A stretch of DNA of 59,278 bases from a virus (lineage: Duplodnaviria; Caudoviricetes): positions 1 to 59,278 of the IMG/VR virus record IMGVR_UViG_3300033405_000018. One strand, given 5' to 3'. Positions within the stretch are counted from its first letter, which is position 1; each line of letters opens with the position of its first letter. Positions 14,085 to 36,708 of this stretch are shown here, piece by piece. A model generated the notes under the pieces. The model was given only the letters and a program-made list of their open reading frames with translations. It ran no database searches and was not told the DNA's origin. Made by a program: the position numbers and the translations under genes.

Positions 14085-14173
14085 TGGTAATATCTCAATC
14101 GACGGGTACAGAAACAATCTGGCTCGGACGTGACGGCTTATCAAAGCTCAATCGTCCGGGCCATTTTGCGTTT
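14085..14173 (+). promoter_or_regulatory. Promoter plus two-hairpin leader element, copy 1 (head genes)
   Basis: TG-G-TAATAT, 7 nt, GACGGGTA-CAGA-AACAA-TCTG, stem GCTCGGACG/CGTCCGGGC, TTTT. Confidence 0.75.
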
Positions 14174-14184
14174 ACAGGAGCCAG

Positions 14185-15816
14185 ATGGACGATTTCAGCG
14201 TATTTCTCCCGATTGAAAAGGTAGACGCGCAGAGCGGGATGGTCTGGGGCTATGCCTCAACGCCATCGAAGGATCTGCAAGGGGAGATCGTCCCGCTGGA
14301 CGCCATCAAGGCCGCCCTCCCGGACTACATGAAGTGGGCGAACATCCGAGAGATGCACACCTCGTCTGCCGTGGGCGTGACCAAAGAGGCCCACGTTGAC
14401 GCCAAGGGGCTCTACATCGGCGCCAAGATCAGCGATGCCGTCGCGTGGAAGAAATGCAAGGACGGCGTTTATAAAGGTTTCTCGATTGGAGGCTCCAAGC
14501 TGGAGAAGGTTGGCGATGTGGTCAAGGCGCTTTTCCTGCGAGAGATCAGCCTCGTAGACCGGCCGGCGAACTCTGACTGCCGCATCGACATCGTGAAGAT
14601 TGCCGGCGGACTCGCCTTTGGAGGGTCAATGGAGAATCAAACCAGTAACGAAACTTTGATGGAAAAGGCACTTGACACGTTCCGAACGATTCTCGGAATG
14701 GGCAAGATTGCTTTGCCGGAACTCGCTAAGGCCGCTCCAGAAGCCGCTCCGAGTCCTGCCGAGTCCGAGGAACTGACTGCCGACGAGTTGACTGATCTGA
14801 CCAAGATAATGGACTCGGAATTTGAGAAGCGCGAGTTCAGCGACAAACAGCGCAAGCATCTGGCATCCCAGGGCATTGCTCTTCCCGATGGCAGTTACCC
14901 AATTGCCAACGTGAGTGACCTTGAGAATGCCGTCAAGGCCTTTGGCCGCGCATCGGACCCCGAGAAAGCCAAAGCTCACATCATTGCACGCGCGAAAGCG
15001 CTGAACGCCACCCACCTTCTGCCGACCGACTGGCCGGGCAGCACCAAGAAAAAGGAGAGCACCATCATGGACACTGACCTCCAGAAGCGATTTGCGGCAG
15101 GAAAAAAGGCGGCCATCAAGAAGGCTGATGACCATATCAAGAAGGCTTCCGCCTCCCACGGCAAAGCAATCGATGAGATTGAAGCCCTCCACAAGTGCAT
15201 GGGCAAGGCGGCCGACGGCGGCGACGAGTTCAAGAAACACTTGACGGCGCTTTCAGGACACATGAACGACATTGCCGACCACCACGAACTGGCCCACGCT
15301 GCTCTCGGCAAGGCTATGACCGGCTGGGAAGGCGAGAAGTCGGAAACCGACTTGGGTGAAAAGCCTGATTCGGAGAATGTCGAAGAGCTTTCTCCCCGGC
15401 GCATGACTGAGGGCGAAGTGGAAGGCAACAGCTACCGCGGCGCGGGCGACTCGCCCTATTCGGCGGCTGCGATTGCGACGATGGTCAAGGCTGCTGTGGC
15501 CGAAGCTACCGCTCCGCTGATCGCCGACAACGCTTTCCTCAAGGGCCAGATGTCCGTCCTTGAGAATCAGCCCTCTGCTGGCCGACGTCCGAAGCTGTTC
15601 AATGCCAGCTCCACCGGCGATGTGTTCCCGTCCAGCGACGGCAAGCCGGACTTCAACAGGCTTATCAACAAGTCGCTATCGGAAGCCGACCCGAATGACC
15701 AGCGCAGTTCGGAGCAGGCGACGGCGCGCGCTTTCGGCTTGATGTGTACCCCTGGTAGCGGGTTTGCGAAGTCGATCAACGACCCCAACTTCAAGATTGA
15801 TCTTGGCGGCAACTAG
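14185..15816 (+). CDS. Prohead protease-scaffold fusion
   Basis: VWGYAS, DLQGE, IREMH, YKGFSIGG, LREISLVDRPAN; long helical C-terminal region; immediately upstream of the capsid gene. Confidence 0.88.
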   Translation: MDDFSVFLPIEKVDAQSGMVWGYASTPSKDLQGEIVPLDAIKAALPDYMKWANIREMHTSSAVGVTKEAHVDAKGLYIGAKISDAVAWKKCKDGVYKGFSIGGSKLEKVGDVVKALFLREISLVDRPANSDCRIDIVKIAGGLAFGGSMENQTSNETLMEKALDTFRTILGMGKIALPELAKAAPEAAPSPAESEELTADELTDLTKIMDSEFEKREFSDKQRKHLASQGIALPDGSYPIANVSDLENAVKAFGRASDPEKAKAHIIARAKALNATHLLPTDWPGSTKKKESTIMDTDLQKRFAAGKKAAIKKADDHIKKASASHGKAIDEIEALHKCMGKAADGGDEFKKHLTALSGHMNDIADHHELAHAALGKAMTGWEGEKSETDLGEKPDSENVEELSPRRMTEGEVEGNSYRGAGDSPYSAAAIATMVKAAVAEATAPLIADNAFLKGQMSVLENQPSAGRRPKLFNASSTGDVFPSSDGKPDFNRLINKSLSEADPNDQRSSEQATARAFGLMCTPGSGFAKSINDPNFKIDLGGN

Positions 15817-15879
15817 TCCCGGCGCAGTTCACAGCGGTCCCAGTTCGTAGTCAGCAACTCGGCAATAGGAGAATCTGAG

Positions 15880-17472
15880 ATGAATGATTTTGAGAAGTTC
15901 CTGCAAAGTGACGTATTCAAGCAGGCCATTGACGAGCGTGTTGGCACTCTCGCAAAGGCCGACACTGTTGACCAGAACACGGGGCTGGTGTGGTACGACC
16001 TGAGCCGCATCGTTCAGGAAATGCACCCGTTCAAGCAGTTGATTCCGCTGATCTCCAGCCTCCCCCGCGTCCCCGCCGATGGCGGCACGGCGCATCGTTG
16101 GAAGAGGGTCACCGGCATCAACGTCAACAACGTCTCCATTGGTGTACCCGAGGGCGAGCGCGCGGCCGCTTCTGCCATCACGGTTCAGGACCAACTGGCG
16201 AGCTACAAGACGATGGGTCTCGAAGGCTCCGTATCCTGGGAAGCTCGTCTGGCCGCTCTCAACCTCAAGCCCGATGCTCAAGGCGTGACGATTCAGGCCA
16301 CGCTGCAAGGTGTCATGGTGGGCGAAGAGCAAACGCTCATCGGCGGCAACGCCTCCACCCCGCTGGGTATCACTCCCACACCTACCCTTACCGCTGCTGG
16401 CAGTGGTTCGGCTCTGTCGAACGTGCCGTATTACATCGTGGCAGTGGCCCTCAGTCATGCGGGCTGGCGCACCGGCAGTATGGCGAACGGCATCCCCGGC
16501 CAGATCACCCTGACGAGCACCACGGGAACAGTCACCAATGTGGGCGGAGGATCGGCTCAGCCTTCGGCGCAGGCCACCATCACCCCGACGGCTGGCCAGA
16601 TCATCACCGCTACAGTCACCCCCGTTGTCAATGCCGTAGCTTATGCGTGGTACTTCGGGACCACGGCCGGCGCGACCCGCCTCCAGGGCATCACCACCAC
16701 GAACCAGGCGAAGTTCAGCGCCGTCCCGTCCAACACCAATCAACTGATCACCGCTTTGCAGGTCAACGGCGCGTATCAGGACAACTCAACCAACACGCTG
16801 CTGCCTGATGGTATTCTCAGCCAAGTCAACGGTTCTGTCTCCGGCGCCGCTCCTGGCACCGCCATGGCAACCAACCCGAACCTGCCCGTTGTGGCCAGCG
16901 GTACTCTCGGCTATGCGGGATCGGGCGCGCTGATCTTCCAAGGGGCCAGCGGCAATACCGGGCTGACCATTGCCGGTACCAGCATCGTCGAGTTCGATGC
17001 TGTATTCCAGGCTGCTTACGACCAGTACAAGATTGGCTTTGACCGGATTCTCGTCAGCTCCACCGACCTGAACTCGAACATCGCTCAGTTCTTGAACACG
17101 GCCAGCACCAACAACAGCCTCCGCATGGTGTTTGAGGCGGATGAGGGCGGCGGGTCCAAGATCGTGGCCGGGCGCGCGGTCAACGCCTACAAGAACAAGA
17201 TCTACGGCAACACTCTGCCGATTGAAACGCACCCCAACCTGCCTCCGGGCACGATTCTGTTCTGGTCTGACCGTTCGCCCTACCCGTTGAGCGGTGTGGC
17301 CAACATCCTCGAAGCGCGTGTCCGTCAGGACTATGTACAAGTGTCCTGGCCCCTGCGCACCCGGCGCAACGAGTACGGCGTGTATGTTGACGAGACGTTC
17401 GCTTTGTACTTCGCCCCGGCCTTCGCTCTCCTGACCAACATCAACCAGCCGACGGGAACCCAGACGTTCTAA
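15880..17472 (+). CDS. Major capsid protein with internal beta-rich insertion
   Basis: Position, strong AGGAG RBS, 530 aa, IETHPNLPPGTIL, followed by a terminator. Confidence 0.8.
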   Translation: MNDFEKFLQSDVFKQAIDERVGTLAKADTVDQNTGLVWYDLSRIVQEMHPFKQLIPLISSLPRVPADGGTAHRWKRVTGINVNNVSIGVPEGERAAASAITVQDQLASYKTMGLEGSVSWEARLAALNLKPDAQGVTIQATLQGVMVGEEQTLIGGNASTPLGITPTPTLTAAGSGSALSNVPYYIVAVALSHAGWRTGSMANGIPGQITLTSTTGTVTNVGGGSAQPSAQATITPTAGQIITATVTPVVNAVAYAWYFGTTAGATRLQGITTTNQAKFSAVPSNTNQLITALQVNGAYQDNSTNTLLPDGILSQVNGSVSGAAPGTAMATNPNLPVVASGTLGYAGSGALIFQGASGNTGLTIAGTSIVEFDAVFQAAYDQYKIGFDRILVSSTDLNSNIAQFLNTASTNNSLRMVFEADEGGGSKIVAGRAVNAYKNKIYGNTLPIETHPNLPPGTILFWSDRSPYPLSGVANILEARVRQDYVQVSWPLRTRRNEYGVYVDETFALYFAPAFALLTNINQPTGTQTF

Positions 17473-17493
17473 CCGGTGGATGGATTTACAATG

Positions 17494-17534
17494 AGGCAGG
17501 CGGCGGCAATCTAACGCCTCCTGCCTTATTTTTT
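17494..17534 (+). terminator. Terminator after the capsid gene
   Basis: AGGCAGG...CCTGCCT followed by TATTTTTT. Confidence 0.65.
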
Positions 17535-17547
17535 GGAGGGAATGAGA

Positions 17548-17814
17548 ATGGTCAGATTGCAGTGTCCTGAAGGTAATTCGCAAGTTTCTGTCGATGGCAG
17601 GAACTACCAGGCAGATGATACCGGGTTCGTGACCGTGCAAGAGGAGAGCGTCCCGAAGCTGCAGGCTATCGGCTTCAAGATTTCGCCGGTCAGCATGACG
17701 GTGAGCCAAGAGGACTTTGACGCCATCGCCGCGAACGCGAAGGACTTGAATCTTCCAGTTCCGGGAGAAGTGAAGGTCGCCGGCAAGCAGAGCGCGCGCA
17801 TTAAGGTGGAGTAA
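17548..17814 (+). CDS. Hypothetical (head-associated) protein
   Basis: GGAGGG RBS; position. Confidence 0.6.
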   Translation: MVRLQCPEGNSQVSVDGRNYQADDTGFVTVQEESVPKLQAIGFKISPVSMTVSQEDFDAIAANAKDLNLPVPGEVKVAGKQSARIKVE

Positions 17815-17819
17815 CACAG

Positions 17820-18653
17820 ATGCCTCATGCGGTTGATTTGACGACATTGACGGACCTGAAGAACTACATAAGCCCCGCTTTGGGCCAAACAACCGCATCA
17901 GACTCCACACTGGCAAAGATCATCACCGCAGTATCAGACGGAATTGAGCGTTATGTCTCGCGCACCTTGGCCGTGGGGACGTTTTCCGAGGTCCGGAATG
18001 GGAATGGGCGCCGCTCAATGCGTGCTCTGGTCTATCCCATCCTCAGCGTCTCGTCTGTGAACTTGGCGCGGTACGCGGGGGAAACAGGACACACGCTGGC
18101 TGCTTCTGTGAACGGATCACCTTCTTTCTTCTCATGGGATAACTGGTTTATCAATCTCACGCATGAGTATTTCTGGGAAGGCCACCAGAACATCATGCTG
18201 AACTACTCTGGCGGGTTCATGACGCCGGGCCAGCTTGGAGTCCTGACCTTGCCGGGATGGACTGCGGCGTCGGTTACCCTGGCCAACGCGCAGATTCAGG
18301 TTGGCGGCTTCTACTATGAGGCAGTCAACGGCGGCACGACGGGCGCGATGATGCCTGCAGCGTGGGGCCAGACGCGCAACTCCCTCACCAACGACAATGG
18401 CGTCTACTGGCGGTGCGAGGGCGCTATTCCGGTCCTGCCAAGCAATGCAAACATGGTCCCTGACGACTTTCAGATGGCTTGTATGCAGCAGTCGGCGCTG
18501 CTCTTCAAGAACAGGACGCGCGTAGGTGATACCGGAAGCGGCGTAGGACCTGACCGGATCAACTACTTCCTGAAGGACGCGCATCCATCCACGATCTCGA
18601 TGCTCGATAAGCACCGCGAAGTCTTCCCAACTGACGGCATGGGAACCATCTAG
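17820..18653 (+). CDS. Head-tail adaptor (gp6/gp15-like) with inserted domain
   Basis: LTTLTDLKNYI...DSTLAKIITAVSDGIERYVSR N-terminus; VPDDFQMAC...LDKHR C-terminus. Confidence 0.7.
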   Translation: MPHAVDLTTLTDLKNYISPALGQTTASDSTLAKIITAVSDGIERYVSRTLAVGTFSEVRNGNGRRSMRALVYPILSVSSVNLARYAGETGHTLAASVNGSPSFFSWDNWFINLTHEYFWEGHQNIMLNYSGGFMTPGQLGVLTLPGWTAASVTLANAQIQVGGFYYEAVNGGTTGAMMPAAWGQTRNSLTNDNGVYWRCEGAIPVLPSNANMVPDDFQMACMQQSALLFKNRTRVGDTGSGVGPDRINYFLKDAHPSTISMLDKHREVFPTDGMGTI

Positions 18654-18676
18654 CCACCAAAAGGAGAAGTAAAACA

Positions 18677-19486
18677 ATGTCGAATCTCAACATCGTAAGC
18701 ACATCGCCCAACACTGCGGCTGCACAGCAGACAGATCTCGTCAATGCTCTCGTGACGGCGGTCCAAGCTGTGCCCGTAACTCCTCCGGTGGTGACTGTAG
18801 TGCCACTGGCTGCCGCCTCGACCACCTACACCTACGCCGTGATTGCCAAACTCGGGACGCAAACGGTACCCGCGACCGCCACAATTACGACAGGCGCCGC
18901 AACGCTTTCGGCGGCCGCGTCCAACACCATTTCGTGGAACACGATCCCCAATGCGGTCTATGACGTTTACCGCGTGACCGGCGGCGCAAACCAAGGCAAG
19001 ATTGCCTCCAACATCTCCGGCGTGACGCTGAATGCCTATGGCGGTGTGCAGTCCGCTCCGCCCACGTTGAGCTTGGTTGACTCCGGACTGGCAGGCGATT
19101 CAACCATTGCCCCAACGTTCAACACCAGCGGATTCCTCAACCATGGAATCATTGAACCAGTGCAAGTAATATCTGCTACTAGCGGAACAATCGCGAGCGT
19201 CTCAGGAACCGTCATTCTCACAGCTGCTACAGCCGGAGCATATACACTCGGAGCTCCTATTGCTGGTCCAGCATCACAAGGTGGACAAGATGGGTCAGAG
19301 CTTCTGCTCATCTCTGTAAATTCTGCCGCACACACTGTGACTACTCCAGCCAATGCCGTTGTCGGAGGGAAACACATTATCACATTCTCGACCACCGGCA
19401 GTTTGGCAAACACGCAATTGTCGCTCGTTGCTGCTGGCGGTGTTTGGTATATCGCCAATGCAGTGAATGCTGCCACACTCTCTTAA
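18677..19486 (+). CDS. Putative virion decoration/structural protein
   Basis: T/A/G/S-rich beta composition, AAGGAG RBS, located in the head-neck block. Confidence 0.55.
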   Translation: MSNLNIVSTSPNTAAAQQTDLVNALVTAVQAVPVTPPVVTVVPLAAASTTYTYAVIAKLGTQTVPATATITTGAATLSAAASNTISWNTIPNAVYDVYRVTGGANQGKIASNISGVTLNAYGGVQSAPPTLSLVDSGLAGDSTIAPTFNTSGFLNHGIIEPVQVISATSGTIASVSGTVILTAATAGAYTLGAPIAGPASQGGQDGSELLLISVNSAAHTVTTPANAVVGGKHIITFSTTGSLANTQLSLVAAGGVWYIANAVNAATLS

Positions 19487-19538
19487 TAACCATCTCAACA
19501 CGGGGCCTCATCGTAGGCCCCACTCACCGGGGAAGATC

Positions 19539-19901
19539 ATGGCAACAATTGACGTGCAGGGACAGTTTGTAGCAATTACGGCAGTGGCAGGACCCAACGG
19601 AACAATCGGCGCGGCCCCATTCGATAGAACTGGTATTCACACAGTTGTTTTGGTCACCGTCCCAGCCTCTCCCTCTGGAGATTATGGAGTCTTGCTTCCC
19701 GACAGTTCAAACTCATTTATCGGAGATGTAGTTGAAGTCATTACAGTAAGTGACCCTGGGAGTAATGGCAACGTAGTATCTGCATCGCCTTCCGATTCGA
19801 TTGGACTGAATGGAGTTCTCGGAAACTTTGTTTCAGGGAACAATGGTGTAACTCTTCGTCGCACCAGCGCAACAAAATGGTTCATCGTGGCACAAGGGTA
19901 G
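19539..19901 (+). CDS. Hypothetical structural protein
   Basis: Beta-rich ORF in the structural block. Confidence 0.5.
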   Translation: MATIDVQGQFVAITAVAGPNGTIGAAPFDRTGIHTVVLVTVPASPSGDYGVLLPDSSNSFIGDVVEVITVSDPGSNGNVVSASPSDSIGLNGVLGNFVSGNNGVTLRRTSATKWFIVAQG

Positions 19902-19903
19902 TT

Positions 19904-20500
19904 GTGGACATCACCCTAGAAGGCGGCAAGCGGCTCTCTGCACGGTTGGATCATATGGGACCAGCCATCAGAAAGGCCGCGCGCCGCCAACTGGCGAACA
20001 TCGGCGATCAGTTGGTAAGATACGGTCAGAAGCACTTCACAGAATCAGGACTCACGAGACGGTCTGGGAAACTCGCATCTTCAATGGCGACCCTACCTGT
20101 CGAAGAAGATGCCCACGGACTCACCGGCGGTATGATGGCTGGACAGCACCTGAGATACGCTAAAGCCCAGGAGTTTGGTGCAGAGATCGACGCGGCTAGC
20201 GGACACATGCTGGCAATTCCCATGGAAGACGCGCTTACCCCGGCAGGAGTGGCAAGGTTTGCACCGCGGGACGCAATAGAAAAAGGGGATTACGAACGAG
20301 TTTTTTTCTCGAACGTGGGCAATCAGGTCTACATGTTCGGCGTCATGGATGGCATCGTGCATCTGCTTTTTGTGCTGGTTCATCACGTCTCGATCCCGGC
20401 GCGGCCATTCGCGGGGCCTGCGCTGAATGCCAATGTGGCATGGATTGCGGGACGGCTTAAGATGGCAGTTGACGAAGGAATCAAGGAGTCCGGAGAGTAG
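19904..20500 (+). CDS. Neck/tail-completion protein (HK97 gp10 or Mu gpG-like)
   Basis: RRSGKLASS, YAKAQEFG, IPARPFAGPAL. Confidence 0.7.
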   Translation: MDITLEGGKRLSARLDHMGPAIRKAARRQLANIGDQLVRYGQKHFTESGLTRRSGKLASSMATLPVEEDAHGLTGGMMAGQHLRYAKAQEFGAEIDAASGHMLAIPMEDALTPAGVARFAPRDAIEKGDYERVFFSNVGNQVYMFGVMDGIVHLLFVLVHHVSIPARPFAGPALNANVAWIAGRLKMAVDEGIKESGE

Positions 20501-20502
20501 CC

Positions 20503-20685
20503 ATGTTCTACAACGAACCGCAACTCGGAATGGCACAAGGCGATTGCTCCAAACTTGCCAAGACTGGCATCAAACCACATCCGTTTGTAGGCGAAGAAGG
20601 GAAAGAGCCTGATAGACACAGTAGCGCTCCGTGCAAAGAATGCGGGAAGCCTTTCAGCTACGAGGCACATTGGAGAGAGGCTTAA
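20503..20685 (+). CDS. Small hypothetical protein
   Basis: GGAGAG RBS; CKECGK...H. Confidence 0.55.
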   Translation: MFYNEPQLGMAQGDCSKLAKTGIKPHPFVGEEGKEPDRHSSAPCKECGKPFSYEAHWREA

Positions 20686-20687
20686 TA

Positions 20688-21158: not shown

Positions 21159-21161
21159 CAA

Positions 21162-21599: not shown

Positions 21600-22208
21600 A
21601 TGAGCGACCCCACCTATGGCGAGCTTCCGGTACAGATTGACCCTACGGCATGGGGTGGAAGGACCAATACGCCCGCCGCGTCCCTCACCGTAGACTCGAT
21701 TCAGAACCAGATTGCCGCTCAACTCGTGGCATTCTTTGTTTCCGGTTCGCTGGCAATCCCAGTCTACATCTACCCGGCCTTTGACCTCGATACGTGGTGG
21801 GCAAGTTCGGCGATTGCTTTCGTCCTGATCTCCTACAGCAACACAGGACTATCGAAGCCCCTTGCGACGTCGAGCATGGTCCAAGAGCGGACTCTCCAGT
21901 TCAAGATCCATGTCGAGGCGCGCAAGACGGCGTGGAACCTCAGCGGGGCGGGCTCGGTCTACGCGCTCATTGATGCGATTGAATCGGCACTTGGGGGATT
22001 CCAGCCGACCGGATGCCGCCATGCCTACTTCACCGAGGAAAGGTTCTCAGAACAGGACCCTCAAGGGCGCGTCTGGCTGTACGATCTGACTTTCAACGTC
22101 ATCACCATTCGTCCGCGGCTGTTGCCCTCTTACGCACTGGCGAACTTGCAGCAAGCGATTTTCAATGTCAGTCCGAGCGGGGATCAGATCATCGTCCCAT
22201 CGGAGTAG
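21600..22208 (+). CDS. Mu gp37-like tail terminator
   Basis: VYALIDAIESALGGFQP, VWLYDLTF; directly upstream of the sheath gene. Confidence 0.6.
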   Translation: MSDPTYGELPVQIDPTAWGGRTNTPAASLTVDSIQNQIAAQLVAFFVSGSLAIPVYIYPAFDLDTWWASSAIAFVLISYSNTGLSKPLATSSMVQERTLQFKIHVEARKTAWNLSGAGSVYALIDAIESALGGFQPTGCRHAYFTEERFSEQDPQGRVWLYDLTFNVITIRPRLLPSYALANLQQAIFNVSPSGDQIIVPSE

Positions 22209-22213
22209 TAACC

Positions 22214-22302
22214 TGATACACTTTGTATCGACGGTACAGGAACAACCTGGCCGGGATGAAGAAGGCTTAATAAGCCCGATTCGTCCCGGCCTTTTCACGT
22301 TT
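22214..22302 (+). promoter_or_regulatory. Promoter plus two-hairpin leader element, copy 2 (tail genes)
   Basis: TG-A-TACACT, 7 nt, GACGGTA-CAGG-AACAA-CCTG, stem GCCGGGATG/CGTCCCGGC, TTTT. Confidence 0.75.
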
Positions 22303-22323
22303 GGCGGCAAAGGAGCGGAGAAA

Positions 22324-24633
22324 ATGGCTTTCTTCCACGGCATCACGGTAACCGAGGTCAACACCAACGGCGTAGCGATCCAAGTGGTCAACTCGGCAGT
22401 TATTGGCCTCATCGGCTCGGCTCCGCAATGGTCGGCATCGTCTGGAGCAGGACCCGGAATCAACGTCCCGACACTCATCCAGTCCGCCGCGCAGGGCTCG
22501 AACTTCGGCAAACAGATTGCCGGGTACACGATTCCCGAAGCTCTTGCGGACATTCAACTCCAGGGTGCGGGTGCCGTCATTGTCATCGACGTGTTCAACC
22601 CACTTCTGCACCAGAGCACGTACACGTTGAATCCCCTGACAGGACCCGCATCCAACAGTGTGCCGGTAACACTCGGCCACATGGGCCTAATTGGTCCAGG
22701 CTTGCCCAACACTCCCCTTTCTACCGCTTCGGTTGACACCGTGGCGCAGGCGGGCGGCGCGGCAAGCCACAGTTATGCAACAGGCGATACCGTCACCCTG
22801 GCGGGCGGGACCTACTCCACCGCTGCCGTACTGACTGTGGCGACGACGAAGCTCATCTCGCTGGCCGTGAATGCCCCCGGCGGCGCTACCTCGCACAACT
22901 ACGCGCCCGGCGATAGCATCACGCTCACCGGCGGAACATCGTCGGTAGCTCCACAATTGACCGTTACATCCACTCAGGTGACTGGCGCAACGGTGGCGGC
23001 CGGCGGCAGCGGCGGCACGAACGGGACTCAGACCGTGACCGGCACCACCGGCACCGGGACGAAGTTCCAAGCGTCTGTGACGGTATCAGGCGGCGCAATT
23101 ACCGCGGTCCTGTCGATCACTCTGGCAGGTTCCTACACTGTCAACCCCACCGCCCCGGCTCTTGAGCCTGTGACTGGCGCAGGGCTGGCTGGTGCCGAAC
23201 TGGCTATCACTCTGGGCGTGGCCACCTTCAACATCGTCAACGCCGGAAGCTTCACGGTCAACAGCGCGACGTTCACACAGGCAAGCTCGACAGGACTCGG
23301 CACTGGCGCCACCTTCAACCTTGGAGTCTTTGGTGTCCTGACCGCCACGGTATCCACTGCGGGCAGCTACTCGGCTATTCCGGCGAACCCTGTGGCTCAA
23401 GCCAGCACCTCGGGCGTTGGAACTGGTGCCACCTTTAACGTGACCTTTGCGGGACCGCCTACAACCGTCGTGGTGAAGAACCAGGCCGGCTCGACAACCT
23501 ATGTCGAGGGCACGGACTACACCATCGACTATGTGAACGGTTTGCTCTACACGAAGAGCGGCGGCGCAATCACCTCGGCGCAGGCGCTGCAAGTCACAGC
23601 GGCCTACTGCGACCCATCCAAGGTTGCCTACACCGACATCATCGGGAGCGTGACCGGAAGCACCTACACCGGCATCCAGGCGTTGCAGACCACATTCCAG
23701 ACAATGGGCCTGTTCGCCAAGCTGCTCATCACCCCGACCTTCTACGATGCGTCGACAAGCGCCAACCTGCTAGCCATGGCGACGAAGCTCCGGGCCATCG
23801 CTTTCACCGACGCCCCGCCGAACACTACCGTCGCAACTGCCATCGCCAACCGTGGCGCTGCTGGCAACGCCTTCAATCAGGGCAGCGACCGGCTCGCCCT
23901 CACCTTCCCCTGGCAACTGAAGACGCCAACGTCTATCAGCCCCACCGGCGTAGTGGTGAGCGCGCAGGGAACCATCGGCTACACGACCATGAGCGGCACC
24001 GTAGATACCCCATACAGCACTTGGGTAGCGGGTGCTACAGCATCCAACGACCTTGCGAATGGCTTCTGGTTCTCGCCATCCAACACTGTCATCAACGGGA
24101 TTCTGGGTCCCGATGTCAGCCTCTACATGAGCGCCTACGATCCGACTTCGGACACGAATGCACTGAACGCGGCCGGTATCCTGACAGTCTTCAACGGCTT
24201 CGGGACTGGATACAGGATCTGGGGCAACCGAGCATCGAGCTTCCCGTCGAGCAGCGCAGTCACTACGTTCATCGCCGTGCGCAGGACCCTCGACGTCGTG
24301 GAGCAGAGCATCCAGTACAGCTCGCTCCCCTTCGTCGACAAGCCCATCACCAACGGACTCATCAACAGCATCCTGCAAAGCGTGAATGCATTCCTGAATT
24401 CGCTCATTCAGCAAGGTGCGCTGATAGCCGGGAGCACGGTCACCTATAACCCAGTTGACAATCCTCCGGCCAGTCTGGCGAATGGTCAAATCACTTTCGA
24501 GATTAGCGTCATGCCGCCCCCGCCGGCAGAGCAGATCGTTTACAACTTCTCGATCAACACCAGTCTGCTGGCGAACCTCGGAGCATCTGTAACGAGCACC
24601 AGCACAACCAGCAACGTCAACGTGACGGCATAA
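22324..24633 (+). CDS. Contractile tail sheath protein with large insertion
   Basis: MAFFHGITVTEV...SAVIGLIGSAP, GFWFSPSN, GYRIWGNR, FIAVRRTLD (P2 FI-like). Confidence 0.92.
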   Translation: MAFFHGITVTEVNTNGVAIQVVNSAVIGLIGSAPQWSASSGAGPGINVPTLIQSAAQGSNFGKQIAGYTIPEALADIQLQGAGAVIVIDVFNPLLHQSTYTLNPLTGPASNSVPVTLGHMGLIGPGLPNTPLSTASVDTVAQAGGAASHSYATGDTVTLAGGTYSTAAVLTVATTKLISLAVNAPGGATSHNYAPGDSITLTGGTSSVAPQLTVTSTQVTGATVAAGGSGGTNGTQTVTGTTGTGTKFQASVTVSGGAITAVLSITLAGSYTVNPTAPALEPVTGAGLAGAELAITLGVATFNIVNAGSFTVNSATFTQASSTGLGTGATFNLGVFGVLTATVSTAGSYSAIPANPVAQASTSGVGTGATFNVTFAGPPTTVVVKNQAGSTTYVEGTDYTIDYVNGLLYTKSGGAITSAQALQVTAAYCDPSKVAYTDIIGSVTGSTYTGIQALQTTFQTMGLFAKLLITPTFYDASTSANLLAMATKLRAIAFTDAPPNTTVATAIANRGAAGNAFNQGSDRLALTFPWQLKTPTSISPTGVVVSAQGTIGYTTMSGTVDTPYSTWVAGATASNDLANGFWFSPSNTVINGILGPDVSLYMSAYDPTSDTNALNAAGILTVFNGFGTGYRIWGNRASSFPSSSAVTTFIAVRRTLDVVEQSIQYSSLPFVDKPITNGLINSILQSVNAFLNSLIQQGALIAGSTVTYNPVDNPPASLANGQITFEISVMPPPPAEQIVYNFSINTSLLANLGASVTSTSTTSNVNVTA

Positions 24634-26321: not shown

Positions 26322-26324
26322 GCA

Positions 26325-28933: not shown

Positions 28934-28987
28934 ATATTCCTCTTGATAAACGCGCTGGAAGGTGTTTAATAAGAGGAGGAGGAGACT

Positions 28988-30713: not shown

Positions 30714-31358
30714 ATGCCAGACCCAGTGCGCGGACCATACACGGAGCAGTTCCACCCGCCCTACAGGACGGGCATTGTCGCGCAGATTGAGTCTGTGCCG
30801 CCCTACCGGGTGCGCGTGCAGTTTCCTGACCAGGGTAATGTTCTGTCGTGGTGGTTGCCAGTCCAAGTCATGAAGACGATGAATGACAAAGACTTCTGGC
30901 AGCCAGACATTGGCGAGCAGGTCTCAGTCGTCATGGATGAGTGGGACGAAAACGGCATCGTGACCGGCGGTGTCCCGTCAACGGTAGATTCGGCACCAGC
31001 AGGACTCACGCCTGCCGACCGCTACACGCAATTCGCGGACGGGACGATCATCCACTACAACACGTCAACACACCAGCTTCAGGTGACGCTCGGGGCCGGT
31101 GGTCAGATGGTGCTTACACAACCATCGGGAGGAAAAGTTGAACTGGATTCGAGCGGCAATGTTGAGATTCAGGCTGCAAGTAGCATTTCGCTTACCAACG
31201 GCGGCGCGGCGGCGGATGCGTTGGCGCTGGTTAGTAAACTGGTGACAGCGTTCAATGCACACACGCACTCCGACCCGCAAGGTGGAGTGACCGGCGCACC
31301 GACAACGCCATGGACGGCAAGCACGATTGAGAGTGTCCTGACGAAGGTTTCAAACTGA
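30714..31358 (+). CDS. Baseplate spike (GpV)
   Basis: RVRVQFPD...WLPV, PDIGEQV, C-terminal HTH metal-binding motif (FNAHTHSD). Confidence 0.9.
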   Translation: MPDPVRGPYTEQFHPPYRTGIVAQIESVPPYRVRVQFPDQGNVLSWWLPVQVMKTMNDKDFWQPDIGEQVSVVMDEWDENGIVTGGVPSTVDSAPAGLTPADRYTQFADGTIIHYNTSTHQLQVTLGAGGQMVLTQPSGGKVELDSSGNVEIQAASSISLTNGGAAADALALVSKLVTAFNAHTHSDPQGGVTGAPTTPWTASTIESVLTKVSN

Positions 31359-31807
31359 TGTCGACGACTTTCCCATATGCGACCCTCACCAATATCCAGT
31401 CCGCCAGCTGGGAGTTGATGCTTGATTCGACGGCTGGAGGAGGACCAGGATCAGGACTCGGACAAGTGTGCCAAGCGCTCTCCGACGTGCATCAGACGCT
31501 CAAGATCATCTTTTCGACAATCCCCGGCGAAGATCCTTTCCGCCCCACGTTCGGCTGCGACCTGACGCAGTTCCTCGACCGGCCGCTTACCGTTGCGATT
31601 CCGGCCATCATTGGTGCCATATCCTCAGCGATTGACGATTGGGAACCGCGCATCACCCTTGAGAGCGTTGATGTTGCCGCCAGCACAACCAACATCGGGA
31701 CTCTCGATGTGACGATCAACTGGAAGCCGAATATGGGATCGAGCAGTTCTACCACGACTACGATAGGCACAGAGAGCACGACAGTACCTGTGGGAGGATC
31801 TTCTTAA
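31358..31807 (+). CDS. Baseplate GpW/gp25-like protein
   Basis: TIPGEDPFRPTFGC, WEPRITL. Confidence 0.9.
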   Translation: MSTTFPYATLTNIQSASWELMLDSTAGGGPGSGLGQVCQALSDVHQTLKIIFSTIPGEDPFRPTFGCDLTQFLDRPLTVAIPAIIGAISSAIDDWEPRITLESVDVAASTTNIGTLDVTINWKPNMGSSSSTTTTIGTESTTVPVGGSS

Positions 31808-33094
31808 ATGCCGGTCATCATTCCAGCGAATACGTTCCCAGCCGCCACCGGCACTCCTCAGACGGTCCCTGTTGATCTGCCTACGCCATCGTTCGTCAAT
31901 GACTCAGACGGACTCGATGCAACACTAGTTCTGAACGACATGGTGAGCAAGTTCGAGACGGACACCAGTAGGACCCTTTACCCGGCCCAGGTCGAGCAAC
32001 TGCTTATCAACCTTTATGCCTACCGCGAGATTTTGGTGCGCAACGCAATCCAGTATTGCGGCCTCCAGAACCTGCTCGCATTCGCCGTCTACCCGATGCT
32101 GGACTACCTTGGCGAGTATCTGGATTGCACCAGGCTCCCCGCGCAGTACGCCACGACGATGTTACAGTTCACGCTCATTGCGGCACAGCCATCTGACACT
32201 ACGATTGCTTCTGGTACGCAGATCGGGACCCAAGACGGCCTCAACATCTTCGCCACGACCTCAGCGCTCACGATTGCTGCTGGACAGACGGCAGGGACCG
32301 TAGCGGCACAATGCACAACAGCAGGACTCAGCGGCAACGGCTATATCGCCGGGCAGGTTAGTGTCCTGCTGGGTTCATTTCCGCTCGTGGCCAGCGTCAC
32401 GAACACGACCACGACAGCCAATGGAACTGACGGAGAACCGGCCGGAACGACTGCGGGAGACAATCACTACAGGATACGCATCCAGGCGGCACCAAACAAC
32501 CTCACGACGGCTGGTCCAAGCAACCAGTACCGCTCTTTGGCACTTGATGTGAGTTCAATAATCGTTGACGCGCAAGTACCAACAACACCAGCAACGCCGG
32601 GCACGGTGCAGGTCTATGTCCTGACAGGACCCGTAACGCAGCCTGCGTCATCGCCAAACAGTGCGGGTATCGCCTCTGGCACCCTGCTTTCCGCCGTTCA
32701 ATCGGCTCTCAGCGCGCAGACTGTGCGACCTCTTTGCGACACCGTATTGGTTTCGGCAGTGACGGAAGTCGATTACACCGTGACCGGAGCGATCACGCTT
32801 TACGCCAATGCCAGTTACTCAACCATTGCCGCTGGAATCACTGCGGCGGCTCAGAACCTTGCTTTGACACTTGCTGCAAACATCGAGCAGGACATAGTCC
32901 TCAGCCAGTGGCAATCTGCCCTCAGCGTTTCGGGGGTCTACGACATGCAATTGACTCTCGCGGCGAACATCGGGGGAACCCTACTCACACCGACTTCTGA
33001 CGGCAGTTTTTTGCTCACAGCAGGACAATGGGCGAACTGCACCGCAATCAACCTGACCATCGTTATGGGAACGAAAAACCAGCCAGTAAGTTAG
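31808..33094 (+). CDS. Baseplate J protein
   Basis: LDYLG, YRIRIQAAP...TAGPSNQY, PGTVQV, VRPLCDTV. Confidence 0.9.
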   Translation: MPVIIPANTFPAATGTPQTVPVDLPTPSFVNDSDGLDATLVLNDMVSKFETDTSRTLYPAQVEQLLINLYAYREILVRNAIQYCGLQNLLAFAVYPMLDYLGEYLDCTRLPAQYATTMLQFTLIAAQPSDTTIASGTQIGTQDGLNIFATTSALTIAAGQTAGTVAAQCTTAGLSGNGYIAGQVSVLLGSFPLVASVTNTTTTANGTDGEPAGTTAGDNHYRIRIQAAPNNLTTAGPSNQYRSLALDVSSIIVDAQVPTTPATPGTVQVYVLTGPVTQPASSPNSAGIASGTLLSAVQSALSAQTVRPLCDTVLVSAVTEVDYTVTGAITLYANASYSTIAAGITAAAQNLALTLAANIEQDIVLSQWQSALSVSGVYDMQLTLAANIGGTLLTPTSDGSFLLTAGQWANCTAINLTIVMGTKNQPVS

Positions 33095-33111
33095 ACCAAG
33101 GAGAAATGTAG

Positions 33112-35424
33112 ATGAAACGAATTGCGCTCTTTCTTTTCCTGGTTCTTTCAGCAGTGGCATGTTTTGCGCAGACGCAGATTGACCCAACTTACCAGATTCA
33201 ATGGAATTTGCTCTCCGGTTCTGGTGCGCCTTTGATCACTTGCACGCAGAATGGCGACTACACCGTCTACCCATACGGTGCCCAGTGGGGTCAGTCCTAT
33301 CAGGACAAGACAAACAATGTCGAGTATAAATGCACAGCGTCTGGGTGGGTGCAGAACGCCACACAAGCAGCACTCAATGCAGTACAGACCACAGCCAACG
33401 CGGCGCTGCCTGCCAATGGCCTCACCACCTCTCCCGGTGGAAATATCAGTGGGGCGGGTACGGCTACATTTGGTAACCTCGCGGCTACGATTACGTCAAC
33501 TGCGCCAAACATCTCTGTTTCCGTTCTAGAGTACGGAGCAGTAGGCAACGGGTCTACCGACGACACTGCGGCTATTCAGGCAGCGCTGAACTCGAAGACA
33601 AACAATCTCACCGTCCATGGAGTCGGAAAGAGCTATCGAACAACTGCTCCGATCTACATTCGCGGAAACTCAAAAATTCTGGACTTCGATGGCGGACAGC
33701 TCGTCTACGACATTACCTCAGTAGCTAAATTCACGATAACGGCCTACTCGTCAGGATCGAACGTATTCACGCTGACAGGATCAAACAGTTTAACGGCAGG
33801 GCAATATGTTGTATTTTCTGTATCCGTCGGGCCTACCGTGCTAAACGGACTAACTCTGCCGGTATTGTCAACTGGCTTGAGCAGCTCACAGTTTGAGGTG
33901 GCGTATACCGGAGCATCCGGTTCTGGGTCTGTAACGGGAACGGCCTCTACGATATCTGCGGCGCTCATCATTGACAATCCAAATGCTACCCCAGCATCCA
34001 CCGCTGGAGCCCCGACTTACTATCAAGGAGCAAAAAACGTTTCAATTTATGCCATCAATAGCACCCCTTTAATCGCGAACACCGCTGGCATTCTTGTTGA
34101 AGATGGATCTTACAACGTGGATACCGAGAATGTCTATCTGCAGGGGTTTGGCTCTCAGTCTTCAAGCGGCTATTGCATGGCAATTTTCGGCGGTCCGAAC
34201 GGCAGCAATGGCGGCGTGAACGATTCGCCGTATTATGGATATTATAAGAACTTCAGTGCCTATGGGTGCTATAAGGGGCTGTTTGTTGGGACCACATCTG
34301 GTCCAGCTCTTGCTAGTGCTCAACTGCTCACCACCCAGAAATTCGAAAATCCCACTGTGCGGGCCAGTGTGAATCACGGATATCATATTTACTATGCGCA
34401 GAACATCACGCTGGATGCACCCGACGCAGAATCCAACGGCGGAGCAAACATGCGTTGGGAAAACAGCGGGAATATTTTTTGCTTTGGAGGATTCATTGAA
34501 GGTGGCCACCCGAATATAGATCCAGTCAATATTCTCGCCAATTTCAACAACGTGAATTTGTGCAATGTTTACCCGGCAAATGGCGATCCAGGCACGACGG
34601 CGTCAACCTACGGTCAAAACCCTGCCATTGGATTGCAGGGAAACATGATTCAGCTCAACCGCATCGGGTCCACTCAGGTTTTGATGAACAACGGGGACAT
34701 CATCCCCAATATTCAACCCGGTACTTTTGAGGTGTATTCGCTGGTCTCAGGAGATTATGGGCGTTTCACGATAGCCAACAACAGCGTTATTTTGGCGGAG
34801 AGCACATCATCTTCGTTGTTCTCGACGATACAGGGGAACGCCAGCACGATCAACGTCTATTGGGATGCGACAAATAGCTATTATGCTGTACAGAACAACT
34901 CGACAGGAGGATACTTCAGGCTCTATCAGAAGTATGGAAGCCCGAATGCTGGCACAGCATTGGCGTCGATGTACATGCCGAACTTGATGGCGCCGCCAGC
35001 GAATCTGGCCGCGAGTGGCAATGGTGGTGTGACTGGTACTTTGCCGGTCTCTAAAGTTGGATTCAACGCATGGTCAACTTGGACACCAACTGATCAGAGT
35101 GGTGGCAGCCTGACGTTTTCCAGCTCTGGACTTTCGTGCACCCAGACGGGACATACAGAGTTCTGTCAAGGGTATATCCAATATCCATCGACATCGGATA
35201 GTCACAACGCGAAGATCGGCGGATTGCCTGTCCAGCCTGTATACAACACTGGAGTAATGGCAATCGGGAGTTCACCATCGATTGCGGCAGGATCTCCGGG
35301 AATCCAAGCATTAGGCAGCACAAACAACGCGGCGTTCTATACACTCAACGGAGGTGTCAACTTGACAAACGCCAACCTTTCAGGCGTTACGCTTTACTTG
35401 GCGTTTTTTTATCAGACAAACTGA
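33112..35424 (+). CDS. Tailspike/depolymerase-like beta-helix protein with N-terminal signal peptide
   Basis: MKRIALFLFLVLSAVACFA|Q; VSVLEYGAVGNGSTDDTAAIQAAL (pectate-lyase-3-type cap); fibre-like C-terminus WSTWTPT...IGGLP. Confidence 0.75.
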   Translation: MKRIALFLFLVLSAVACFAQTQIDPTYQIQWNLLSGSGAPLITCTQNGDYTVYPYGAQWGQSYQDKTNNVEYKCTASGWVQNATQAALNAVQTTANAALPANGLTTSPGGNISGAGTATFGNLAATITSTAPNISVSVLEYGAVGNGSTDDTAAIQAALNSKTNNLTVHGVGKSYRTTAPIYIRGNSKILDFDGGQLVYDITSVAKFTITAYSSGSNVFTLTGSNSLTAGQYVVFSVSVGPTVLNGLTLPVLSTGLSSSQFEVAYTGASGSGSVTGTASTISAALIIDNPNATPASTAGAPTYYQGAKNVSIYAINSTPLIANTAGILVEDGSYNVDTENVYLQGFGSQSSSGYCMAIFGGPNGSNGGVNDSPYYGYYKNFSAYGCYKGLFVGTTSGPALASAQLLTTQKFENPTVRASVNHGYHIYYAQNITLDAPDAESNGGANMRWENSGNIFCFGGFIEGGHPNIDPVNILANFNNVNLCNVYPANGDPGTTASTYGQNPAIGLQGNMIQLNRIGSTQVLMNNGDIIPNIQPGTFEVYSLVSGDYGRFTIANNSVILAESTSSSLFSTIQGNASTINVYWDATNSYYAVQNNSTGGYFRLYQKYGSPNAGTALASMYMPNLMAPPANLAASGNGGVTGTLPVSKVGFNAWSTWTPTDQSGGSLTFSSSGLSCTQTGHTEFCQGYIQYPSTSDSHNAKIGGLPVQPVYNTGVMAIGSSPSIAAGSPGIQALGSTNNAAFYTLNGGVNLTNANLSGVTLYLAFFYQTN

Positions 35425-35482
35425 CCCTTGCTGTATGCACTACGGTAGTTCATTTAATAGGCCAAAGGAGGGCCTGAGCAGC

Positions 35483-36619
35483 ATGGCAAACAATCTCAGG
35501 CCCGCATCATCAATCAACGACCTCAGAACGACGGCTCACATGGCTCTATCGGCGCGCCTGCAAGCTATCGACTTGACTCCTCTACTCATCAGGACTCTCG
35601 GAACCAACCTCCCATCCTCCATCTTGCCGTACTTGATATGGGAACTCGACATGATGGTTCCCAGTGTCCCGATGCAAGCGTTGGGCGTTACCTCACAGAC
35701 CATCATCCAGAACGCCCTTCCATTGCACAAGATCATGGGCACGCCGGGAGCTATCAGCCAAGCACTATCCCTCTGCGGATTCAACGCCACTATGTACGAG
35801 GGGCAGGCATCATGGGGAGGATCTTCTTATCCTGCCAACCAAGGATGGGCTGTATTTCGCGTGGGAGTCGCAGGATCTGGACAATCGCCTATCGGAGTCA
35901 TAGACGGCACAAATAGATCATTCAATCTTCCCGCGGTCCCGGTCGGAAACTCCCTGCGTGTCTTCTACAACGGACTATTGCAGCTTCCTGGCGTTGGCTA
36001 TACAACGTCGGGAACAGGACTCGAAATGTCTTTTACCCCGGCCCTTGGCTCTGCGCTTTGTGTCCTGATGCGCAAATCCACGGACGGCACTCCCCTCTAC
36101 TTTGATGCTGTTGTGCCTATGGTATCGGGATCGAATCTAATCCTTCCTGAAGCGCCAATATCGATTGAACTCTACCGCAATGGGATGTTTCAAAGCATGG
36201 GGGCTTCCCCGGCACAACTCGAATACATGGCCACGATCATCAACTTCTTTAAGCCGGCGCGGTGTCTTCTCGATTCCGTCTTTGCGGAGGGCGGCAAAGA
36301 TTACTACATCCTCGACGGGAACACAATCATTCCATCTGTGCCGATCGGCAGCGCATCCTTCCTCGCATGGGGAACCTACGCGGGAACTGGAACGGCTCCA
36401 AACTTTGCTGACTGGATCACGCCGACAGGAACGCTGAATGGGACCAACAAGATTTTCACCCTTCCACAAGCCCCGAGCCCGGCTGCCAGCCTACGCCTCT
36501 ACCGCGGATGGCAAGTCCTCAAGTCGGGAGGAGTTGACTACACGTTGAGCGGTGCCACAATCACCTACACGATTGCCCCGCCGCCCACAGCCACGCATAT
36601 GGCCTTCTACCGATACTAG
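35483..36619 (+). CDS. Baseplate protein I (P2 gpI-like) with added beta domains
   Basis: LPYLIWE, LHKIMGTPGAISQAL, WAVFRV, INFFKPARCLL. Confidence 0.8.
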   Translation: MANNLRPASSINDLRTTAHMALSARLQAIDLTPLLIRTLGTNLPSSILPYLIWELDMMVPSVPMQALGVTSQTIIQNALPLHKIMGTPGAISQALSLCGFNATMYEGQASWGGSSYPANQGWAVFRVGVAGSGQSPIGVIDGTNRSFNLPAVPVGNSLRVFYNGLLQLPGVGYTTSGTGLEMSFTPALGSALCVLMRKSTDGTPLYFDAVVPMVSGSNLILPEAPISIELYRNGMFQSMGASPAQLEYMATIINFFKPARCLLDSVFAEGGKDYYILDGNTIIPSVPIGSASFLAWGTYAGTGTAPNFADWITPTGTLNGTNKIFTLPQAPSPAASLRLYRGWQVLKSGGVDYTLSGATITYTIAPPPTATHMAFYRY

Positions 36620-36626
36620 GGTGAGG

Positions 36627-36708
36627 TACAATCGCTTTGACGGGTACAGAACCAGTCTGACTCGCCACAGGACCTTGATAATAGGCTCAGTGGCGAGTCT
36701 TTCACTTT
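36627..36708 (+). promoter_or_regulatory. Promoter plus two-hairpin leader element, copy 3 (fibre/lysis genes)
   Basis: TACAAT, 6 nt, GACGGGTA-CAGA-ACCAG-TCTG, stem ACTCGCCAC/GTGGCGAGT, TTTCACTTT. Confidence 0.7.

Follow-up and report, generated by a model that had tools for sequence, protein, structure and literature searches.

A structurally conserved two-hairpin leader RNA ahead of the head, sheath and zinc-ribbon genes of uncultured peat phages

The timing of late gene expression in tailed phages is understood in a few models, which are those of Q, N, Ogr/Delta, Mu C and the T4 sigma factor. The IMG/VR virus record IMGVR_UViG_3300033405_000018 (59,278 bp; here called the window, which is the whole virus record and has direct terminal repeats) raises the question of what an RNA module does that stands three times on its + strand, each time 5' of a gene block. 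A preliminary description had listed three such copies with one shared layout, and reading of the sequences bore this out. The copies, at 14085-14173, 22214-22302 and 36627-36709, are alignable over about 95 nucleotides (nt) and share one order of parts: a -10 box, 6-7 nt, GACGG(G)TA, a small hairpin of 4 bp with an A-rich loop of 5 nt (H1), a long GC-rich hairpin that abuts it with zero spacer (H2), a T-rich tract, a Shine-Dalgarno sequence and ATG (Table 1). The predicted leader is 70-73 nt long. The data showed that selection acts on the RNA structure of this module, and they point to H2 as a predicted intrinsic terminator rather than a stem of the type found in the put RNAs of phage HK022.

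Structure, covariation and copy number of the module

With at most one mismatch, the core pattern GGTACAGNANCANNCTG matched the window three times, against 0.09 matches expected, and none of 100 shuffles reached three. Every copy folded better than all 200 of its own shuffles, with z from -4.1 to -4.9. A covariance model (R1), which was built from the copies and their orthologues and therefore matches its own training sequences by construction, detected the three copies as full-length sites in the genome, and no other full-length match scored above 10 bits. Rfam 15 was searched at gathering thresholds over the whole window, which returned the transfer-messenger RNA (tmRNA) only and nothing at the modules, and in E-value mode over 3 kb around every copy, which returned a single unrelated match elsewhere in the locus (MIR1223, E 2.9). 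The module thus belongs to no Rfam 15 family detected at these places, as had been proposed. The motif CTTATCAAR was also overrepresented (four sites, 0.57 expected), and just one of its sites lies inside a module.

Relatives in IMG/VR were collected by the sheath (40 loci), the head protease (36) and the gene of a 366-amino-acid (aa) protein (29). Ahead of the sheath gene, phages whose sheaths are 81-95% identical had nearly letter-identical promoters, GACGG(G)TA segments, T tracts and ribosome-binding sites, and H1 and H2 were replaced with pairing retained: the H1 stems were CAGG/CCTG, CTTG/CAAG, CTCA/TGAG and CCAA/TTGG, and the loops AACAA or AGCAC. Copy 1 likewise occurred either as CAGA-AACAA-TCTG or as CAAA-AGCAC-TTTG, and each form came with a different H2. 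At modules 1 and 2 of L001-L020 and L041-L069, H1 and H2 were swapped as whole cassettes between identical promoter and ribosome-binding-site flanks, the flanking proteins being 89-95% identical; recombination between modules and diversifying selection are both possible causes. The apical part of H2 in copy 3 was found in both orientations (CCUUGAUAAGAGG and CUCUUAUCAAGG), and in L121 and L123 (1137-1207) it is inverted relative to L103 and to 36660-36698 of the window, which amounts to an inversion of the hairpin tip. The tip motif UUGAUAA/UUAUCAA also stands at the apex of both G004 modules.

Covariation was assessed by RNAalifold and by pair counts, with shuffles and slid-partner controls; the aligned sequences share kinship, so that the shuffle counts given here are not probabilities. 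RNAalifold on 11 distinct sequences gave 20 pairs, eight of them with compensatory changes. R1 detected 74 sites in 94 sources, which comprised 27 distinct sequences. When these were aligned by R1, 88.0% of the cells paired, compared with 72.1% after shuffling (0 of 500 shuffles reached the observed level), and sliding the partners by 1-3 columns brought pairing down to 25-53%. An alignment of 11 sequences made with MAFFT, independent of the model, gave 92.6% pairing compared with 80.2% (0 of 500 shuffles). The count of pairs with two-sided changes did not exceed that of shuffles (223 of 500 for the 27 sequences, 185 of 500 for the MAFFT alignment), and neither did the measure of further pair types (355 and 465 of 500, respectively). 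The support for covariation is therefore taken from the cell-level measures and the slid controls. H1 was the cleanest helix, with 99% of its cells paired, two-sided change in three of four pairs and zero wobbles. When divergent modules were included (13 sequences), all four H1 pairs changed on both sides, with a score of 0.712 compared with 0.238 (0 of 500 shuffles), and the 10 different H1 stems read were all Watson-Crick. The preliminary description had proposed selection on RNA structure and a covariance model to examine it; run on the window and its relatives, the model recovered the three sites and their orthologues, the homologues covaried, and stems changed while pairing was kept. H1 of copy 3 was invariant among the copy-3 orthologues and consequently rests solely on homology with copies 1 and 2; in the energy minimum of module 3, the 5' segment pairs with ACC..GUC in place of the H1 pairing.

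The Watson-Crick-only pairing of H1, with zero wobble, and its fixed distance from the -10 box would also fit an element that works as DNA, in which H1 is an inverted-repeat operator or an unusual promoter part and the RNA fold is incidental. We regard this as extremely improbable, because the half-sites differ between copies of one genome (CAGA/TCTG, CTCA/TGAG and CAGA/TCTG in G002) and between near-identical phages, and one protein could not read them all. Moreover, the adjoining H2 is clearly strand-specific RNA. It is rich in U-G and G-U pairs (12 of 27 rows at columns 24-63 and 11 of 27 at columns 29-58), which are A-C mismatches on the other strand, so that the fold is that of the + strand RNA. 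The H2 apex was also compared with the IHF and DnaA boxes and dropped as a candidate, as it fitted their consensus sequences poorly.

Exactly three modules each were present in G000, G001, G002 and G003, of which G001-G003 are complete or near-complete genomes of the clade; they stand 5' of the head protease, sheath and zinc-ribbon genes. G004 and G005 carried modules at the head and zinc-ribbon positions only, and there the sheath gene directly follows the preceding gene, which suggests that the sheath copy is a later duplication. The head protease is 50% identical to that of the window in G005, 55-59% in G004 (tblastn and alignment), 55% in L070/L273 and 64% in L281. H1 was CAGG-AACAA-CCTG in G005 copy 1 (c1), CTAG-AAAAC-CTAG in G005 copy 3 (c3), GCGG-AAAAA-CCGC in G004 c3, TCCG-AACAA-CGGA in L070/L273 and CTGA-AACAG-TCAG in L281; the G004 c1 module was less regular. 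The H1 loops were thus AACAA, AGCAC, ACCAG, AAAAA, AAAAC and AACAG, which follow A-N-C-A-N in the clade of the window and are A-rich elsewhere.

Five genomes were scanned for the architecture, defined as a 4-bp stem, an A-first T-free pentaloop, a gap of 0-2 nt, a stem of at least 6 bp and a T-rich tail. The scan returned 11 sites, all of them modules with spacer 0, and nothing elsewhere, and 20 shuffles gave 0 or 1 site each (1 site in 5 of the 20). It missed the third G003 module, the tail of which is below the T threshold and which R1 detects. Among the matches listed in a scan of IMG/VR with an IUPAC pattern, 42 new loci were checked with the model, and at least nine were real, all in the same clade. 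No DNA match to module 2 was found in GenBank phages, and species genomes gave three distant prophage-like head-protease matches, none with a module. Relatives with head proteases 48-49% identical had a consensus promoter in the same place, with the terminator absent.

Predicted promoter and predicted leader terminator

The -10 hexamer ended 14-17 nt ahead of H1 in all eight lineages read. At this place G004, L070/L273 and L281 have full consensus promoters, and the promoters read in relatives were TTGACT-17-TAATCT, TTGACA-17-TAGGGT and TTGACA-17-TAACAT; the clade of the window has an extended -10 box without a -35 box. The fixed distance, together with a full TTGACA-17-TAnnnT promoter at the same place in relatives, upheld the earlier view that the module is promoter-proximal, and transcription would start from a sigma70-type promoter at the G of GACGG.

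The shape of H2 was not kept across distant lineages. In relatives with 50-64% identity in the head protease, H2 is reduced to an ordinary terminator hairpin of 7-10 bp with a U tract, and H1 and the zero-spacer junction stay. In G005 c1, H1 is followed by a 10-bp hairpin and a CCUUUUCUUU / CCTTTTCTTT tail, and in L070/L273 by a short stem of about 7-8 bp and UAUUUUAUU (L070); L281 and both G004 modules retain a GC hairpin and U tract. The constant part is a GC-rich hairpin directly followed by a U tract, and a U-rich tail was present in all relatives. A GC-rich hairpin with a U-rich tract within 1-2 nt, which is the form of an intrinsic terminator, was found at 11 of the 11 scan sites and in L070, L281 and G004 c1, and H2 with its tail had a predicted free energy (dG) of -16 to -35 kcal/mol. 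Because relatives keep just the GC-rich hairpin and U tract, H2 is read as a predicted intrinsic terminator and not as a stem of the put type. A separate terminator precedes the promoter of module 1 and that of its G005 orthologue, which argues that H2 is not there to end the previous operon. In L070 (1447-1481, also L273) a second terminator-like hairpin, GCGCTCGACACC..GGTCGGGCG with TTTTTCATT, lies right behind the first, giving tandem terminators in the head-operon leader.

H2 could instead be an RNase III site or a protective 5' stem-loop of the late mRNAs. In the clade of the window it is irregular, with about 16-20 pairs and an internal loop, in which it presumably resembles the RNase III sites of phage T7, and the genes behind it are very highly expressed. 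However, the hairpin has 7-10 pairs in G005 copy 1 and L070, which is too short for RNase III, and the module is kept there. The eight unpaired 5' nucleotides are unlike a protective 5' hairpin, and the U tract is conserved although processing does not need it. We therefore consider a role in mRNA processing or stability very unlikely.

A promoter, a structured stretch of about 70 nt, a terminator and a U tail are also the anatomy of a small-RNA gene. Under such a reading H2 would be a constitutive partial terminator, so that a fixed fraction of transcripts is released as a small RNA of about 70 nt with a seed at its 5' end and the rest becomes mRNA; H1 and H2 would be scaffolds. The single-stranded 5' end is the best conserved stretch, and the stems drift freely while pairing holds, both of which would fit. 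In distant modules, however, the 5' segment differs (GACAGCA, AGACAGCUA, AAGAGCAA and AAGGAGUA), and it has no perfect complement in the phage besides the modules' own antisense. With at most one mismatch, GTACCCGTC gave 18 sites against 8.2 expected, and none was noted at a start codon. The H1 loop pattern and the invariant zero spacer would be left unexplained, and a small RNA of this kind seems to us an unlikely explanation.

Two further candidates for the leader were rejected. If the 5' GACGG paired with the 3' arm of H2 as an antiterminator, the helix would have 4 bp at most, and it is absent in copy 3 and L001. A sigma-dependent pause element was suggested by the -10-like AACAAT of copy 1, the T of which is missing in copies 2 and 3 and in the orthologues.

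Proposed mechanism and known antitermination systems

The reading we favour, to which we give about an even chance, is that a sigma70-type promoter stands before each late operon, that its leader of about 70 nt ends in a terminator, and that H1 is the recognition site of a read-through factor. The leader would consist of an 8-nt purine-rich single strand, H1, and then H2 with the U tract, stacked on H1 without a spacer. By default, most polymerases would stop at the U tract and an RNA of about 70 nt would be released. When the late genes are turned on, a factor, most likely a phage protein, would recognise the nascent RNA by its 5' segment and its H1 loop and suppress the terminator. A marginal hairpin with a conserved loop and an adjoining conserved single strand looks like a site at which a protein or the polymerase binds.

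The junction of the two hairpins suggests how the terminator might be suppressed. In every lineage read, a pair is possible between the final nucleotide of H1 and the one that comes after H2, namely G-C, A-U (L070), C-G (G004 c3) or G.U (G005 c3). The closing pair of H1 had a probability of 0.31-0.36 in ViennaRNA folds, compared with 0.52-0.92 for the inner pairs (w_c2, G005_c1 and L070), and the energy model favours the pair between the last H1 nucleotide and the nucleotide after H2 over the H1 closing pair. H1 and the terminator stem thus appear to overlap by one nucleotide, and an H1 stabilised by the factor would keep the terminator stem one pair short and crowd its base. A local mechanism of this kind is favoured because every terminator has its own H1 at zero distance and because the last H1 nucleotide can take part in the lowest pair of the terminator stem. 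The polymerase might also be modified processively, as in the N-nut or LoaP systems.

Several observations weigh against the proposed mechanism. H1 is thermodynamically marginal, with a dG of +1.3 to -4.5 kcal/mol, and in equilibrium folds its pair probability was about 0.02 or less in 7 of 12 modules. The covariation at the junction consists of only two changed lineages and could be due to chance, and the overlap of H1 with the terminator is at most 1 nt, unlike that at RAT or ANTAR sites. The consensus terminator scan does not list H2; its rule accepts only loops of 3-8 nt, and internal loops occur in H2. Interruptions are present in the U tracts (UUUUCACGUUU), and a processive effect would make three copies redundant. 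Contigs from RNA libraries cross modules 1 and 2 (X23 13992-14666, X19 22023-22671 and X23 21917-22541), which means that read-through molecules exist or that the libraries contained DNA from which the contigs derive. Relatives 88-99% alike were present in four RNA runs labelled peat. The part from 13600 to 13966 was without a contig and cover began at 13967-13992; the uncovered part proves nothing, and contigs cannot show starts or ends. Finally, no known regulator was found. Profiles of the lambda-type Q (PF03589), the Q21 type (PF06530), Ogr/Delta and NusG (PF02357) gave 0 matches at E<=1 in six frames, in agreement with the earlier remark that no Q or Ogr homologue is seen here, and Pfam and PHROG scans of about 70 open reading frames (ORFs) named no antiterminator candidate. 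The absence of profile hits is weak evidence, because a Q21-like antiterminator can be visible by structure alone, as the preprint on the Bartonella gene transfer agent (BaGTA) reports for BrrG, a Q21-like, distant structural relative of Q (bioRxiv 10.1101/2024.11.20.624540).

The put RNAs of HK022 were the first comparison, since the preliminary description had seen the module as put-like. There, put consists of two long bulged stems within about 70 nt, forms a triplex and binds the zinc-binding domain of beta', and putL carries a -10-like NANNAT at +23 to +28 that acts as a sigma-dependent pause (PMC9378689). The module resembles put in its length of about 70 nt, its place directly behind the promoter as in putL, its several copies per genome as with putL and putR, its conserved RNA structure, and the lack of a known dedicated protein, no protein antiterminator having been found in the phage. 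A leader RNA that itself binds the polymerase and makes it resistant to its own and downstream terminators, with no factor, would account for these features. The likeness did not extend further. Relatives conserve one 13-nt hairpin and a generic terminator with a U tract, not the two long bulged stems of put: stem I is a 4-bp hairpin, and stem II is reduced to a plain terminator hairpin of 7-10 bp. NANNAT is absent, positions +22 to +28 being GCUCGGA, GCCGGGA and ACUCGCC in the three copies. Furthermore, a built-in terminator that is overridden in every round would be purposeless, and H1 alone is very small for a polymerase-binding RNA. A put-like function is, in our judgement, decidedly unlikely. 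Of the RNA-based late-gene switch proposed earlier, the attenuator or protein-binding leader is the form that we favour, and the put-type antiterminator is not supported. With the regulated leader terminator as the preferred reading, the other known systems compare as follows.

In the late control of phage lambda, the promoter PR' is followed by a qut site and the terminator tR', which yields the 6S RNA, and the Q protein acts there. We take the PR'-tR' 6S RNA to be the nearest analogue of the module leader: both have a constitutive-looking late promoter, a leader terminator giving a short RNA, and structural genes behind it, although for the module the late promoter and the terminated short RNA are sequence predictions only. 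In contrast to lambda, which has one such site, there are three or two modules per genome, the predicted terminator lies at about +70, and a covarying RNA hairpin abuts it. A conserved -10-like pause element is missing from the early transcribed part of the module, the phage has no Q profile match, and two modelled proteins matched no Q21-like structure. Q reads DNA, whereas the conserved feature of the module is an RNA structure.

The nut sites of lambda and P22 consist of boxA and a boxB hairpin with a GNRA-like pentaloop, to which the N protein responds. The module is similar in that a single strand and then a small hairpin with a purine-rich pentaloop lie near the 5' end of the transcript with terminators downstream. 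However, its stem has 4 bp and not 5, its loops begin with A (A-N-C-A-N, AAAAA and AAAAC) and not with the G of a GNRA-like G...A loop, and the 5' segment is GACGG(G)UA with no boxA-like CGCUCUUA. The hairpin touches the terminator, and the operons are late, not early.

A small leader hairpin and a leader terminator, as in the module, are also found in the LoaP-dependent dfn leader of Bacillus velezensis, where the hairpin is needed together with about 10 nt before it and the intrinsic terminator of the leader is the first checkpoint (PMC12691694). The dfn hairpin described there has a UNCG tetraloop, with a pause site between hairpin and terminator, whereas the modules have pentaloops, and the factor is a NusG paralogue in a Firmicute host, whereas the phage has no match to PF02357. 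An assignment of GACGGTAC as an ops element was dropped, as it fitted the consensus poorly and a NusG paralogue is lacking. Word searches of the open-access literature gave no description of such a module.

A bolder version of the proposal, which we hold only tentatively and think unlikely, is that a 13-nt A-loop hairpin on a terminator represents a new class of self-contained nascent-RNA switch. It would either act alone, as a minimal put-like or NusA-antagonising element, or recruit a new family of small phage antiterminators, with the zinc-ribbon protein regulating its own synthesis and a competition between hairpin and terminator for one nucleotide.

Candidate factors, genome context and significance

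Several proteins were considered as the putative factor (Table 1). In each of the five genomes, three proteins of no known function (64 aa, 209 aa and 107 aa, from crude ORF calls) are encoded 5' of the head module, and the Cys4 zinc-ribbon gene comes first behind module 3. The zinc-ribbon protein, conserved and at the same position in G002-G005, is a candidate trans-factor. It had no PHROG or Pfam match; its structure model had a pLDDT (predicted local distance difference test) of 68.4, and its best fold matches, which included the NrdR zinc ribbon and the C-terminal domain of RIG-I, were not significant (E 0.6-1). The helix-turn-helix (HTH) model of the 209-aa protein had a mean pLDDT of 70.7 and a disordered linker, with best Protein Data Bank fold matches, sigma-4 or winged-helix like, at E of about 1, which is not significant. 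Among close homologues of this protein (P0001-P0071) the linker ranged from about 20 to 170 residues. The 107-aa protein (12882-13205) had no usable ESM Atlas match, and four small conserved proteins were without a Pfam match at E<=10. A scan for arginine-rich motifs, aimed at an N-like protein, gave off-frame ORFs only, so that no such protein was recognised, and the profile of sigma70 region 2 gave only 11.8-bit noise in a repeat ORF. The cold-shock-domain protein, a possible RNA chaperone or antiterminator, was present in G002 and G003 and was excluded as a general factor, because G004 and G005 had no tblastn match at E<=1e-4 yet have modules.

Table 1. Positions of the module parts and of associated genes in the window
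Feature	Position	Strand	Remarks
Module 1 extended -10 box TGGTAATAT	14085-14093	+	Hexamer TAATAT 14088-14093; kept in orthologues; putative promoter
Module 1 purine-rich 5' segment GACGGGTA	14101-14108	+	G14101 predicted start, from spacing only (8 nt past -10 box)
Module 1 H1 CAGA-AACAA-TCTG	14109-14121	+	Covarying stem; loop pattern A-N-C-A-N
Module 1 H2	14122-14161	+	Arms GCTCGGACG / CGTCCGGGC; outer stem GCUCGGACG/CGUCCGGGC, internal loop, apex GGCUU-AUCA-AAGCU
Module 1 U tract CAUUUUGCGUUU	14162-14173	+	Predicted termination zone; T tract 14163-14173; AGGAG 14176-14180, ATG 14185
Module 2 extended -10 box TGATACACT	22214-22222	+	Stop codon of upstream gene 22206-22208
Module 2 5' segment GACGGTA	22230-22236	+	G22230 predicted start
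Module 2 H1 CAGG-AACAA-CCTG	22237-22249	+	Orthologues CTTG/CAAG, CTCA/TGAG, CCAA/TTGG
Module 2 H2	22250-22290	+	GCCGGGAUG.../...CGUCCCGGC, apex GGCUU-AAU-AAGCC
Module 2 U tract CUUUUCACGUUU	22291-22302	+	ATG 22324
Module 3 -10 box TACAAT	36627-36632	+	Stop codon of upstream tail-protein gene 36617-36619
Module 3 5' segment GACGGGTA	36639-36646	+	G36639 predicted start
Module 3 H1 CAGA-ACCAG-TCTG	36647-36659	+	By homology with copies 1 and 2
Module 3 H2	36660-36698	+	ACUCGCCAC/GUGGCGAGU, apical part CCUUGAUAAUAGG
Module 3 U tract CUUUCACUUUG	36699-36709	+	ATG 36722
Canonical intrinsic terminator	14024-14050/14060	+	10-pair stem GCCCGGCATC..GATGTCGGGC then TCTTTTTGTC; just 5' of module 1
Head maturation protease-like, 543 aa	14185..15816	+	First gene behind module 1
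530-aa gene, phrog_13692	15880-17472	+	Function not known; after head protease-like gene
Tail sheath, 769 aa	22324..24633	+	First gene behind module 2; phrog_23, E 4.5e-74
Cys4 zinc-ribbon protein, 94 aa	36722..37006	+	CX2C-X24-CX4C; first gene behind module 3
Permuted (two-piece) tmRNA, betaproteobacterial type	4052-4358	+	Tag ADSFELPVAA*; Rfam tmRNA_permuted 97.7 bits, beta_tmRNA 84.2 bits
209-aa protein, candidate regulator	11545..12174	+	Conserved N domain, hypervariable linker, C-terminal three-helix HTH (model)
Cold-shock-domain protein	57075-57587	-	PF00313 E 1e-29, residues 104-168; true start probably internal Met 104

The + strand carries, in this order, a Dps-like gene, the permuted tmRNA, terminase, portal, a Mu F-like protein and a run of small ORFs. 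A canonical terminator closes the terminase, portal and small-ORF block, a layout that recurs as a separate terminator 5' of the head module in the G005 relative, and three module-headed blocks follow, up to 43569. The block behind module 3 contains the zinc-ribbon gene, the gene of the 366-aa protein, which had no PHROG family match, and, as its last gene, a helicase of the Strawberry-notch (Sno) type (1024 aa, 40495-43569, + strand). It had been described as a fibre and lysis block headed by copy 3; lysis was not shown, and the tail-fibre genes lie ahead of copy 3, not behind it.

The replication and modification genes are on the - strand. Here a helicase fused to an N6/N4 DNA methylase (787 aa, 43588-45951), a C5 cytosine methylase (47849-49450), a Rha/KilAC antirepressor-type protein (1473-2294) and a small HTH_3 (Cro/CI-like) protein (441-659) were found, as well as a 95-aa ORF (58860-59147) with EAYQKAKAPA-like decapeptide repeats that adjoins the terminal repeat. 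No integrase was recognised among the ORFs scanned. The ferritin/Dps-like gene (3394-3993, + strand; PF00210, E 3e-24) lies immediately 5' of the tmRNA gene, and, as the record comprises an entire virus with terminal repeats, the latter does not represent a host attachment site.

The sequence was present in runs labelled peat metagenome, among which X1 and X2 are possible sources of it and X3 and X4 contained 0.46 and 0.28 of the sampled words, respectively. No close cultured phage was found: among GenBank phages the head protease had no match covering at least 80% of the protein, and the nearest sheaths, about 40% identical, were those of Mu-like phages of Burkholderia and Ralstonia. Because the phage has its own tmRNA gene of the beta type and a sheath nearest to those phages, this clade of uncultured peat phages probably infects Betaproteobacteria.

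We rate the module as a new RNA motif, possibly with a new factor, inside the familiar logic of antitermination at a leader terminator. By profile search the clade shows none of the model late regulators, yet a selected RNA module heads each late operon. Even as a leaky leader terminator, it would be an RNA motif that Rfam lacks, and its 10 independent stem variants would serve for a family description. If it is a conditional terminator, it would be a compact part of about 90 bp, defined by covariation, that could be used in reporters and to fish for the factor, and it would add a late switch guided by an RNA hairpin to the short list of phage antitermination systems.

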